Below, in pieces: positions 1-58,866 of a stretch of 64,000 bases of DNA. Below the pieces are notes generated by a model that searched no databases, was not told the origin of the DNA, and worked only from the letters and a program-made list of their open reading frames with translations. The stretch covers positions 868,001 through 932,000 of the forward strand of contig ML996688.1 of assembly GCA_010356995.1 (NCBI GenBank), written 5' to 3'. Numbering within the stretch: position 1 is the stretch's first letter; every line of letters starts with the position of its first letter. This DNA is from Trichodelitschia bisporula (Eukaryota). The translations under genes were made by a program, and so were the position numbers.

Positions 1-1219
1 GATCAGCATGCACCGCCTGCACGCTCGCCGTGATCCCCAGCTGCCCAAGCCGCCGCGCGTCCTCGGGCGATGCCAGCTCGAGGTGCTCGACGCGGTGCCG
101 CCTCCCGGGCGTGCAGGTCGCCAGCGCATCGATGGACATGTGGATCGCCGCATCGCCAATCGCATGCAGCGCAACCTGCAGGCCCGCAGCATCGGCAGCC
201 GCGACGACGGGTCCGAGCATCTCGGCGGTCCAGAGAGGCGGGCAGTGCGTGACCGGGTCGGCGTAGGGCTTGGACAGTGCGGCGGTGCACGCGTCGATCA
301 CGCCGTCGGTAATGATTTTGATTCCCGCGATGCGCAGATTCGGACTGGTTTGCTGACTGTATAGCTCGTTCAGCGCGACGGCCACGCGGACCTGGGCTAG
401 TCCGTCGTCGGGGGTGGACGGCGTGATGAGCCAGTGCGCGGCGATGCGTACGGGGAGTTTCTGGCGAGAGCGTAGTAAGAGGAGTGCATCCCACGCTGCC
501 TGGTCCATGGCCATGTCCACAAGCCCGGTGTACCCGGCGGCGGAGTACTCGTCGATAGCCGTGGACAGCGCAGCGAGCTTGTCTTCTTCCGAGGCGACAG
601 ACGCCAGGTGCGGCCAGACGAGCGTGAGAACGCTGGCCTCGGCGATCAAGCCCGTAGGGTTGCCTGCCTCATCGCGCTCGATGAACCCGCCTGGTTGCGA
701 AGGTAGCTCGGCGACACGCATCTCCTCCAGCGCGGAGGTGGAGCACCACGTGCTGTGCAGGTCTTTAGCGTCGATGAAGATGGGGCGCGGATCCAGATCG
801 TCGATCATCGATGCTAGGGCTTTGCCATCCGTCATGCTGTGCATCCAGCCGCGGCAGAGGATGCGGGGCAGGTGCGGGTGGGCGGCGGCGTAGGCGGTGA
901 TGCTGGACCGGATGGAGGGCAGGTCTGTGCAGGTGCTCAGGTCGAGCTTGGTGAGTGAGAGGCCGAGGAGGAGGAGGTGCATGTGGCTGTCTATAAAGCC
1001 GGGGAGGATGATTTTGTTGTCCAGTGAGAGGGTTTGGAAGCCGTTTTCACGGGCGGAGGTGACGACAGCACCGGTGCTGGGCCCGATGTGGGTGATCAGG
1101 CGGTTTTGGATGATCATGCATTCTTGGAAGGCATTTTGGTCCACCTTAATGGGATCTTGGGGTGCGAAGAAGCGGCCATTTTGCAGGATAAGGCCCGGTT
1201 CAGGGGATGATGTCGCCAT
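1..1219 (-). CDS. Amidohydrolase 3 (YtcJ-like) metal-dependent hydrolase, 3' end runs off the window
   Basis: Hand translation from ATG 1219 gives MATSSPEPGLILQNGRFF...KIILPGFIDSHMHLL...RILCRGW...DLHSTWCS...IERDEAGNPTGLIAE...GYTGLVDM. PGFIDxHxH metal motif present; no intron in the translated part. Confidence 0.85.
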   Translation of the reverse strand, partial: MATSSPEPGLILQNGRFFAPQDPIKVDQNAFQECMIIQNRLITHIGPSTGAVVTSARENGFQTLSLDNKIILPGFIDSHMHLLLLGLSLTKLDLSTCTDLPSIRSSITAYAAAHPHLPRILCRGWMHSMTDGKALASMIDDLDPRPIFIDAKDLHSTWCSTSALEEMRVAELPSQPGGFIERDEAGNPTGLIAEASVLTLVWPHLASVASEEDKLAALSTAIDEYSAAGYTGLVDMAMDQAAWDALLLLRSRQKLPVRIAAHWLITPSTPDDGLAQVRVAVALNELYSQQTSPNLRIAGIKIITDGVIDACTAALSKPYADPVTHCPPLWTAEMLGPVVAAADAAGLQVALHAIGDAAIHMSIDALATCTPGRRHRVEHLELASPEDARRLGQLGITASVQAVHAD

Positions 1220-1578
1220 GATGGTGGTGGGAAGGCCTGTTCGAAGCGCGATGTTGAGATAAGGCTGCGAAGCTTCGGCCGCCAGATCGTCAACTCGCAT
1301 AACATCCCTGTTCACGTGTATTGATCTTATTGATCGCTTAGGGAGGCAAAGCAAAATTCAGCAGATCCGCTTTTATGGGCTTTCTATGCATACCAAATGG
1401 TCAAGCCAAAGTTCTTTCGGGACTATGCAAAAGGGACTATTGCAAAACCATAGGTTCATGATGATACGGAGCTAGACTAGGGTACCCGAGTAGACGCCCA
1501 TGGCATTGCTTCGCGCCTCTGGCAGATAGAAGTATCAGAAATGAAATTCTCGAAACTCGTAAACACATGCCTAGTTAC

Positions 1579-3175
1579 TCAGAGGATAAGCTCCGCCTCA
1601 CGAGTGTGTCGAGCGTATTCGACTACATCATGAGCGTACAGATAATCCTGAAGGAGCTTCGCTGGAATTCGAGCCGAGTCAGTGAGCGATAAGGGCAAGC
1701 ATAAAGTATTAAAAACGGTGCGAGGAGCGAGGCAAAGAGATGAGATTGAAGACGCAAAACTCACCATCCAGCGTTGTCTTCCCGATTAACTGCGTCCTGG
1801 ACAATTCTTCCACCACCGAGGCCCTCCCATACCGAACCTGGTGCCACAGTTTAAGCAGTGCCGGAACCTGATCCGCCGCTGTACCACGCCTAAACAGTGG
1901 TCCTAGGGCACCAGCATCTTCAATTGCCTGGGAACCACCCTGTGCTCGATCTATAGCCATCAGTTACTTAGCTGGCAAAAGGCCGGCGGACCTACGGGGT
2001 AAAGTGGGATGTGCCGCATCTCCGATCAAACACACACGTCCGCGGATCCATGATGGAATCGGCTCTCGCTGTAGAAACGGGAAATGGCGGATGTTGTGCG
2101 CCTTGCGGAGACATGCTAGTATCCCAGGTGGGAATTCTGAGAACTCGGAGAGGAGAGCATCTGTTGAAGAAACCGAATACCAGGATTCCGGGGACGAAGA
2201 AGGCTTCCCGTCTGCTGTTTTAGAAGCGGGCTCCGGATGGATGCAAACGAAGTTGATCAACTCGTTATTACGGCACGGATAGGCGACAACGCGCTTGGTG
2301 GGAGTGGCGAAGATGTGGTTTCCGCCGTCGATGAAGACTGCGTCACAGTCAATATCATCGCCTATCTCTTTGGCCTCGATAATGAATCGATAACAAGCCT
2401 CGCCAATGTGATATGGTTTGGAGCCGCCAAAAACCAGATCGCGTGTGCGGGACTTCCGATGATCAGCCAGGCCCGCTTTCCGTTATTCGGACCGCCTTAC
2501 ATGTACGCCGTCAGCTGCTATGACCATATCTGCCTGATACTCTTCACCATTCACCAGCGTCAGCTTCCCATGATCCGGATCGATACTGACAACTTTGGAA
2601 CGAAGGTGTAGCTCTGGGACTGGATCCTGGGATGTTGTAGGATTGAAAGCGAGATGCTTCAACTCATTATGGAGGTCGACGCGGTGAGTGAGGTACCATT
2701 CCTACTCTATTAGCAGCAGCAAAGCGAACGCCATGAGACCCTACAGCTCCATAGAGCGCGCGCATATCGTGGAACACCTTGCTGATGGTTTCTCCAGTCG
2801 TGCCATTATGCAATGCTAGCTGCTCAATCATAAGTCTCGCTACTAAGCTACCTGGGTGCTTTATGCCACGCAACTTACACTGTAACAAGAGACGGCCTTC
2901 ATACGTTCTGGGTCGTACTGAAGCCATTCCAAGACTCGCGTAGCATTCGGTGTCACGTGAATGGCCGCTCCGATTTCGTTCTGAAAATCCGATTGTTCAA
3001 AAATGTATTATCGTTCAGTCAGGTTTAACATAGAGAGCATCAAGGAACATATCTTGACATTGTGGCCGCTCCTCCGTAGCGCGACAGCCGCAGAAAGGCC
3101 AGCAATGCCGGCTCCAATGACAGCAACATTGAGTGTCGGCTTTGGATCAAGCGCAGAAGCGCTGAGCTGGGCCAT
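1579..3175 (-). CDS. FAD-dependent monooxygenase (salicylate hydroxylase-like, FAD_binding_3), 7 exons
   Basis: VAVIGAGIAGL Rossmann motif, then IFEQ...EIGAAI, HRVDLH, IAADGVHS, YPCR, LIGDAAHPTLPHRAQGGSQAIEDA. Frame is intact after removing six introns; the first (3005-3052) is AT-AC. Confidence 0.9.
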
Positions 3176-3597
3176 GATGATGAAGTTGACGGAACGGTTT
3201 CTCGGAAAACATAGCTCCCCGCATTTCTTTATAGGGACCCGCTGTGATAGAAGTGAATGTCCCGACGTTGTGTAACATCCCAAGGGAAGCCTCCACCCGA
3301 CCCCTGCTGGTAAGGCGCACTGGACGAAAATGAGCCAATGGAGTACGGATGTATGCATATCGGAATAACCATGCGGCAACTTCATGGCTCTGTATGCTCT
3401 GTGGGAGGTTGGTTGAATTGGACAGGAGAGCTGTACAGACGGATCGGGAGGCCTGAACGAGATCGCAATTGGATTTGGGGGCTTCATGTTTCTCCAGCAA
3501 GCAGTGAATATGATGGTCCATGGCAAGATGTTCCATGGTCATTTCATTCGTATATGTCCGCTTGCTCTCACAGCATTCCCGTTCCTATCGGCAAACA

Positions 3598-4641
3598 TTA
3601 CACGCGGACAGGGTGCGAGTCCCTCCGCACCAGCAAGTGACCATTCTTGAGCAGTGAATTCGGACAGGGCTGTCCCTGTAGGAAGTCTTCCAGGTTGTGT
3701 AGTGTAGTACCTGATATCTCCTCCAGCGCCTCCTCTGTGAAGAATGCCTGGTGCCCACAGATGATAACATTCGGAAACGTCAGCAGCCGCATCAGCACGT
3801 CGTCGTGGATGATCTCGCCAGAATGGTCGCCATAGAAGACGGCCGCTTCAGCCTCATAAACGTCCAACGCGAGCCCTCCGAGATGTTGAGCTTTCAGCGA
3901 CGCAACTACGGCATTGGTGTCGATCAACCCGCCACGTGAAGTATTGACCAACATGGCGCCCTTCTTCATCTGCGACAGTGTCTTCTCGTTGATGATATGC
4001 CAGGTGCTCTCGATGAGTGGGCAGTGTAGGCTGATGATGTCGCTTTGCCCAAGCACTTGCTCCAACTCCATGAACTCGACAAAAGACTCAAGCTCGGCAG
4101 CAGGATAGGGATCGTAGGCGAGCAGACGGCAGCCGAAACCACGCATGATATGCGCAAAAGCGACGCCAATCTTCCCTGTTCCCACGATACCCACGGTCTT
4201 GCCTCGGATGGTAAAGCCCAGAAGGCCTTCCAGATTGAAGTTGCCTTCACGTACGCGGTTGAAGGCCCGATGCGTCTTGCGGTTTAGGGTCTGGATGAGC
4301 GCGACAGCGAACTCGGCCACAGCAGCCGGCGAATAGGACGGCACATTGGCTACGAAGAGACCCAAGGCTTCGGCTGCCACGAGGTCGACATTGTTGTAAC
4401 CGGCGCAGCGCAGGAGCACGGCTCGAACACCATGCCCAACCAAGGCTGTGAGGACGTCTGCGTTCAGGACATCGTTGACGAAGACGCAGACAGCTTCGTT
4501 ATCGGCGGCGAGGATAGCGGTTTCGGTGTTGAGGGCGAAGGTGTGGTAGGTGACTTCCAGAGACGGGTGCTTCTCGCCGCGGACAAGCTCGAGAAACTTT
4601 TTGTCGTGCGGCTGGACGCTGAAGACGGCGAGCTTCGGCAT
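3598..4641 (-). CDS. NAD-dependent D-lactate dehydrogenase (LdhA-like D-2-hydroxyacid dehydrogenase)
   Basis: MPKLAVFS...LLRCAGYNNVD...VPSYSPAAVAE...GIVGTGKIG...SLHCPL...VNTSRGGLID...LDVYEAE...GHQAFFTEEAL. Intronless; best start is ATG 4641. Confidence 0.92.
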   Translation of the reverse strand: MPKLAVFSVQPHDKKFLELVRGEKHPSLEVTYHTFALNTETAILAADNEAVCVFVNDVLNADVLTALVGHGVRAVLLRCAGYNNVDLVAAEALGLFVANVPSYSPAAVAEFAVALIQTLNRKTHRAFNRVREGNFNLEGLLGFTIRGKTVGIVGTGKIGVAFAHIMRGFGCRLLAYDPYPAAELESFVEFMELEQVLGQSDIISLHCPLIESTWHIINEKTLSQMKKGAMLVNTSRGGLIDTNAVVASLKAQHLGGLALDVYEAEAAVFYGDHSGEIIHDDVLMRLLTFPNVIICGHQAFFTEEALEEISGTTLHNLEDFLQGQPCPNSLLKNGHLLVRRDSHPVRV

Positions 4642-58780: not shown

Positions 58781-58866
58781 TGCCCCCACGCCGATTTGAA
58801 CGACGGACCTTCGCATTAACTGTTGGACAGTACGAGTGCGACGCTCTACCCCTGAGCCATGAGGGC
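58781..58866 (-). tRNA. tRNA-Thr(CGT) with 14-nt intron (58817-58830)
   Basis: Minus strand GCCCTCATGGCTCAGGGGTAGAGCGTCGCA-CT-CGT-A[CTGTCCAACAGTTA]A-TGCGAAGGTCCGTCGTTCAAATCGGCGTGGGGGCA folds as a cloverleaf; T7 Pol III terminator at 58761-58767. Confidence 0.93.

Follow-up and report, generated by a model that had tools for sequence, protein, structure and literature searches.

An AT-AC intron with U2-type splice signals in a salicylate-hydroxylase-like FAD monooxygenase gene of Trichodelitschia bisporula

The window analysed here is a stretch of 64,000 nucleotides from Trichodelitschia bisporula (GenBank assembly GCA_010356995.1, contig ML996688.1, positions 868,001 to 932,000 of the forward strand); all coordinates below count from its first letter. 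Close to its start, the minus strand carries a FAD monooxygenase gene with six introns, of which the first has AT and AC as its termini in the placement that we prefer (Table 1). A scripted splice of the window at six joints yields a 416-aa translation that is identical to the public protein P0001, which one source assigns to Trichodelitschia bisporula under the name of an FAD/NAD(P)-binding domain protein. The public gene model thus already contains the splice of 48 nt that is the subject of this analysis.

Group A flavin monooxygenases combine a GxGxxG motif in a beta-alpha-beta unit, an acidic residue that ends beta-2, a DG motif and a GDAAH motif. P0001 displays this set, as evidenced by the residues that are invariant in alignment A1 (G21, G23, G26, D172, G173, G319, D320, A322, H323 and P324) and by the conservation of E44. 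The Pfam family PF01494 (FAD_binding_3) scores 53 bits on P0001, above the gathering score of 22, and several Rossmann-type Pfam families match over residues 16-50, across the K41|I42 junction. Homologues at 37-53% identity are salicylate hydroxylases according to their source names. Judged by its motifs and Pfam score, the predicted product is a salicylate-hydroxylase-like FAD monooxygenase of group A.

The gene is the middle one of three closely spaced genes on the minus strand (window 2-4641), for which Pfam predicts an Amidohydro_3 protein (2-1168, leaving the window edge), the FAD monooxygenase (1579-3175) and a D-isomer 2-hydroxyacid dehydrogenase (3601-4641). The trio may be a small catabolic cluster. 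Contigs from the two sequencing runs that we take to be transcript-derived (X3 and X4, see below) run unbroken from beyond 3500 over the spacer at 3176-3600 (minus strand) into the monooxygenase gene. They hold 748 and 1,459 letters beyond 3500, so that their far end would lie inside the dehydrogenase gene if they are collinear with the window. This is a sign of either overlapping UTRs or transcriptional read-through, with the caveat that one contig need not equal one transcript.

Table 1. Features of the FAD monooxygenase gene and of its first intron in the window.
Feature	Position	Strand	Remarks
FAD monooxygenase gene, whole coding region	1579..3175	-	7 exons, 416 codons; stop TGA 1581..1579
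Exon 1, coding part, M1-K41	3053..3175	-	ATG at 3175; holds GxGxxG strand-helix of the FAD fold
Intron 1, 48 nt	3005..3052	-	phase 0, between codons K41/I42; termini AT...AC, preferred placement
5' splice site of intron 1, ATATGT	3047..3052	-	5/6 match to GTATGT; +1 alone changed, G to A
Putative branch site of intron 1, CCTGAC	3018..3023	-	branch A 3019; 14 nt from there to the 3' junction
3' splice site of intron 1, TAC	3005..3007	-	TAG or CAG usual
In-frame TAA stop within intron 1	3008..3010	-	unspliced mRNA would end after 56 codons
Surrogate GT..AG, unused, GTCAAG...TTTCAG, 78 nt	2981..3058	-	its removal would delete VKIFEQSDFQ
Exon 2, I42-S83	2879..3004	-	beta-2 strand IFEQ with conserved E44, plus NEIGAAIH
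Intron 2, GT..AG, 59 nt	2820..2878	-	X3/X4 contig joint and spliced translation
Intron 3, GT..AG, 43 nt	2702..2744	-	contig joint given as 2701-2743, cut +1
Intron 4, GT..AG, 48 nt	2453..2500	-	X3/X4 contig joint and spliced translation
Intron 5, GT..AG, 45 nt	1951..1995	-	X3/X4 contig joint and spliced translation
Intron 6, GT..AG, 103 nt	1662..1764	-	X3/X4 contig joint and spliced translation

Read on the minus strand, the locus has the order CACAATGTCAAG | ATATGTTCCTTGATGCTCTCTATGTTAAACCTGACTGAACGATAATAC | ATTTTTGAACAA, where the insert ATATGTTCCTTGATGCTCTCTATGTTAAACCTGACTGAACGATAATAC runs from 3052 down to 3005. Without splicing the frame continues as GHNVKICSLMLSMLNLTER and then meets TAA (ORF 3008..3538, ending ...NLTER). 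A 48-nt insert with an in-frame stop had been described in the original prediction, and we confirm its letters, its coordinates and the stop at 3010..3008. The fungal branch-site consensus is CTRAC, which the CCTGAC of intron 1 contains; the other five introns of the gene hold CTGAC, CTGAT or CTAAT-like motifs. At the 5' end, ATATGT keeps five of six positions of GTATGT, in agreement with the criterion of Sheth et al. 2006 (PMC1557818) for type II AT-AC introns, a 5' site that follows the U2-type consensus except at +1.

Four sequencing runs bear on the splicing of the gene. X1 and X2 are DNA runs from one sample (S1) and possibly the source of the assembly, while X3 and X4 stem from one other sample (S2) and are guessed to be RNA, no run being recorded as such. 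We take X3 and X4 to be cDNA-derived because six stretches resembling introns are missing from their contigs but present in the DNA contigs. Over 1400-3500, five of the skipped stretches have CT..AC ends on the plus strand, corresponding to GT..AG on the gene strand. The sixth comprises 48 nt at 3003-3050 (joint 3002->3051), with two letters that fit both sides; since these fit either side, skipping 3003-3050 gives the same mRNA as removing 3005-3052. The surrogate joint GTCAAG...TTTCAG is absent among the six joints of the X3 and X4 contigs. Overall, the 48-nt intron is removed from the transcript, in frame and with a family-conform product. The transcript junction proposed as a check is therefore found in the runs guessed to be RNA, and the joints together with the 416-aa translation agree with the earlier statement of five GT-AG introns besides this one and a reading frame that is otherwise clean.

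The DNA contigs of X1 and X2 fully cover 1400-3500 with zero differing letters and contain none of the six gaps. Because they agree with the window, the terminal A and C of the intron are present in the reads as re-assembled, which speaks against the earlier concern that one or both bases might be an assembly error. No X3 or X4 contig falls within an intron of the gene; contigs, as assembled products, drop rare forms. Each of these contigs comes with one depth figure, which cannot measure splicing efficiency. X3 and X4 are probably the data behind the public gene model and hence not independent of the P0001 model.

We hold with high confidence that intron 1 is a genuine, constitutively removed, U2-type AT-AC intron, most likely spliced by the major spliceosome and derived from a GT-AG intron by two substitutions. 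This upholds the core of the original prediction, a natural AT-AC intron with U2-type signals: the insert is absent from the X3 and X4 transcript contigs, and ATATGT and CCTGAC are both of U2 type. Two points refine the earlier reading, namely an ambiguity of 2 nt in the boundaries and the presence of the splice in the public gene model.

To place the junction in its protein family, 125 homologous proteins were aligned with MAFFT, three of them lacking the N-terminus. Residues 34-58 show no indel relative to P0001 in 117 of the 122 homologues with an N-terminus, and 119 of the 125 aligned homologues retain E44, the residue that ends beta-2. Removing exactly 48 nt therefore gives a family-conform protein. 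The nearest homologues by E-value, P0008 to P0013 (44-53% identity), come from Talaromyces, Eremomyces, Pseudogymnoascus, Stipitochalara, Sporothrix and Cudoniella according to their source names. In three of these six (P0009, P0012 and P0013) a gap of 6-7 residues (xVxIFE or xVxIFEQ) coincides precisely with the junction. Such a gap occurs in none of the 115 other homologues with an N-terminus; P0108 and P0109 have an unrelated gap of two residues upstream. The models of P0009, P0012 and P0013 were probably mis-predicted at a non-canonical intron, because a real loss of beta-2 and E44 is unlikely and a gene finder restricted to GT-AG would yield just such a gap. Comparison of the protein models thus gives a hint that the odd termini may be common to the orthologue group.

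A search for short proteins with residues 1-85 of P0001 returned 67 ORF fragments. Most of them (59/67) cross the K41|I42 site without insertion, and P0189 diverges after beta-2. Four fragments carry an in-frame insertion exactly at K41|I42, with 22 codons in P0170, 18 in P0174 and 20 each in P0175 and P0178, and three more (P0190, P0191 and P0192) break off at this site. In all seven interrupted fragments the first interrupting codon is Val (GTN). The last inserted codon in the four complete read-throughs is Gln, Gln, Lys and Gln (CAR/AAR), followed by I/LYERS. Relatives therefore appear to share the position of the intron, in phase 0 and with a GT start and possibly an AG end. This reading is taken from amino acids rather than DNA, in fragments of a different subfamily with about 45% identity in the N-terminal part. 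The pattern supports a switch of subtype from GT-AG to AT-AC in the line that led to this gene, with the relatives' GT taken from translated codons. Of the comparison with relatives that had been suggested earlier, the GT start is borne out in seven of seven fragments, but it was read from amino acids and in another subfamily.

Further fragments (P0137, P0145, P0158, P0173 and others) end after ...ADGxH with Val-Arg, Val-Ser or Val-Gly. Going by these residues, the ends are GT-intron read-throughs at the site of intron 4 (2453-2500). As they recur in many fragments, the position of intron 4 appears widely shared and the 41|42 position patchy. A metagenome scan with P0001 matched 56 stretches, none of which was a relative. 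With alignment A1, 80 loci were kept at 28-36% identity; most match in one range of some 250-400 residues, as in intron-less, probably bacterial genes.

We infer the mechanism, the direction of change and its neutrality as follows. U1 and U6 would recognise the 5' site AUAUGU, which is intact at +2 to +6. Branching would take place at CCUGAC, whose branch A is separated from the 3' junction by 14 nt; position -3 is a pyrimidine. In the second step, A(+1)/C(last) would replace the non-Watson-Crick pair G(+1)/G(last) that docks the 3' splice site. The most likely ancestor of the intron is a GT-AG intron in this position, changed by two substitutions that compensate for each other; thereafter the AT-AC form would have persisted as a reversion at a single end would block exon ligation. 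The earlier statement that A and C termini compensate for each other in yeast agrees with two sources. Passages of Sheth et al. 2006 (PMC1557818) describe that a U2-type change of G1 to A is rescued by a change of the last G to C in yeast and human, 'although less efficiently', and a preprint on the yeast P complex (10.1101/212811) states that the pairing of the 3' splice site might accommodate an AU at the 5' site together with an AC at the 3' end.

This reduced efficiency of the A/C double mutant (passage in PMC1557818) is one of two observations in favor of the idea that the AT-AC termini were selected as a kinetic brake, in which a slow second step limits or regulates expression of the enzyme. 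The other is the possibility that a non-canonical intron is shared at this site by three near homologues, which could mean that it is conserved. Against it, X3 and X4 contain no retained-intron or alternative contig, though contigs drop rare forms; a trap of two mutations without function explains the persistence equally well; and nothing links an accessory monooxygenase gene to regulated splicing. We consider such a brake unlikely. The expression throttle put forward in the original prediction is thus left unsupported, as the spliced form stands alone in contigs that cannot measure efficiency. A wider conjecture would be that Dikarya, reported to be without a minor spliceosome, maintain a few AT-AC introns of the major spliceosome as a small set that is stable in evolution and extends to accessory genes, and that the A/C termini of this monooxygenase orthologue group are conserved across Dothideomycetes, Sordariomycetes and Leotiomycetes and selected because slower exon ligation tunes expression, beyond the mere need for two simultaneous mutations in a reversion. 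Conservation across classes is hinted at by the three public models without beta-2, and we regard the conjecture as a whole as improbable.

The exact ends of intron 1 can be drawn in three ways that leave one and the same mRNA: AT..AC (3005-3052), TA..CA (3004-3051) and AT..AT (3003-3050). Counted by eye, the corresponding 5' sites match GTATGT at five (ATATGT), one (TATGTT) and two (ATGTTC) of six positions. Only in the AT..AC placement is the last base the sole difference between the 3' end (TAC) and TAG, and only this placement has A(+1) and C(last), which are described as a compensating pair in passages of PMC1557818 and 10.1101/212811. The two letters that fit either side would equally allow a real intron with its true boundaries at TA..CA or AT..AT. 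Nevertheless, this is very unlikely, given the poor match of the shifted 5' sites and that neither shifted placement has a known compatible pair of first and last nucleotides, the documented pair being A/C. We accept the AT-AC placement on signal fit, because of its 5' site, the closeness of TAC to TAG and the documented A/C pair.

In unconventional splicing of the HAC1/Ire1 type, a G stands before each cut. We rejected this type for intron 1, where the 3' cut follows C.

The U12 5' splice site has the consensus [AG]TATCCTT, also given as ATATCCTT, and the U12 branch site has the consensus TCCTTRAY, placed about 10-26 nt before the 3' end of the intron. Several features of intron 1 would suit removal by the minor spliceosome as a U12-type AT-AC intron, namely its AT-AC termini, a start with ATAT as in the U12 5' site, a branch site near the 3' end and one match to the U12 branch consensus, TTCCTTGAT. 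However, the 5' site ATATGTTC departs from the U12 consensus at +5, +6 and +8, with GT instead of CC at +5/+6, in agreement with the earlier statement that the 5' site is not the U12 one. The match TTCCTTGAT lies at 3039-3047 on the minus strand, near the 5' end of the intron; it is the sole match to TTCCTTRAY in the intron and, at 35 nt from the 3' end, misplaced for a U12 branch site. In the whole window, TTCCTTRAY has 3 matches against 1.75 expected, and at least 3 matches occur in 25 of 100 shuffles. We rejected TTCCTTGAT as a relic of a U12 signal on account of this chance-level frequency.

The phylum of the host also speaks against a U12-type intron. Larue and Roy 2023 (PMC10639083) saw no convincing case of a minor intron in either Ascomycota or Basidiomycota and describe a complete absence from Dikarya, and Bartschat and Samuelsson 2010 (PMC2846911) conclude that Ascomycota and Pezizomycotina lack U12 splicing. 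Both agree with the earlier statement that ascomycetes lack the minor spliceosome, with regard to introns and snRNAs alike. A scan of the 64-kb window with Rfam gave one tRNA and no other match, a result whose scope is the window and not the genome. Taken together, a U12-type intron is highly improbable, and the major spliceosome most likely removes intron 1, the absence of the minor machinery being taken from literature at the level of the phylum. Compared with U12-type AT-AC introns, intron 1 shares the terminal dinucleotides and the location of the branch site near the 3' end; it differs in having neither the ATATCCTT 5' site nor a correctly placed TCCTTRAY, and in a host phylum reported to be without minor machinery.

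Finally, the chance that there is no splicing at all, and that the gap is an artefact such as template switching by reverse transcriptase, a deletion allele in the RNA culture or an error in the DNA assembly, is close to negligible. The 2-nt microhomology at the joint, the different origin of RNA (S2) and DNA (S1) and the single RNA sample would be compatible with it. Against it, the contigs of X3 and X4 show the gapped form and no other, and taking out the 48 nt brings back both the reading frame and an exact fit to the family alignment. The insert also has all the parts of an intron, and the contigs that lack it lack the other five introns of the gene as well. In addition, the DNA contigs re-assembled from two runs match the window, and an intron occupies this position in relatives.

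As a spliced U2-type AT-AC intron, intron 1 belongs to a known rare class whose presence in fungi and whose mechanism are already in print. According to passages of Sheth et al. 2006 (PMC1557818), 24 U2-type ('type II') AT-AC introns were found in five species, with examples in human SCN4A and SCN5A and in TAF2 of human and Drosophila, and AT-AC introns had been hypothesised in xylanase genes of filamentous fungi. Zhao et al. 2013 (PMC3577648) include AT-AC among the non-canonical sites that RNA-seq revealed in Fusarium graminearum, where seven genes were also checked by Sanger sequencing. A survey of 2,302,340 fungal splice-site combinations by Frey and Pucker 2020 (PMC7072748) has AT-AC as a minor non-canonical type in fungi; 46 fungal AT-AC introns make up 10.7% in their Table 2, from which we calculate a total of about 430.

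Animal U2-type AT-AC introns resemble intron 1 in that AT...AC termini flank an otherwise U2-type 5' site and are rare, and the animal ones are preserved in orthologues. In contrast, intron 1 comes from a filamentous ascomycete, is very short (48 nt) and lies in an accessory gene of catabolic type. Dependence on the major snRNAs is experimental for SCN4A and SCN5A, whereas for intron 1 we only infer it. The engineered G(+1)A plus G(last)C mutants of yeast and human share with intron 1 the terminal pair and presumably the mechanism by which A/C stands in for G/G in exon ligation; those mutants splice less efficiently, while here a natural allele has the spliced form as its sole form in transcript contigs. 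The published ascomycete AT-AC introns (those hypothesised in xylanase genes, those of Fusarium graminearum and those in PMC7072748) have in common with intron 1 the phylum and the rare class, with RNA-seq and Sanger support in Fusarium. They are listed without a comparison at the level of the site, unlike intron 1, for which we describe the GT start in relatives and the signature of mis-prediction in homologues. New here, going by translated fragments, is that the relatives' intron at the same codon boundary starts with GTN in 7/7 cases.

The intron provides an RNA-supported natural A(+1)/C(last) pair at work in a lineage reported to have the major spliceosome only, and the GT start at the same site in relatives would make it a switch of subtype. 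The understanding of splicing remains unchanged, as the class, its mechanism and its occurrence in filamentous fungi have already been published. For annotation it is a warning: gene finders restricted to GT-AG and GC-AG delete beta-2 of the FAD-binding fold, apparently in three of the six nearest homologues.

The one tRNA of the window, identified by Rfam and ARAGORN, is a tRNA-Thr (CGT) gene at 58781-58866 on the minus strand. With 86 nt it is longer than a plain tRNA and may therefore hold an intron.
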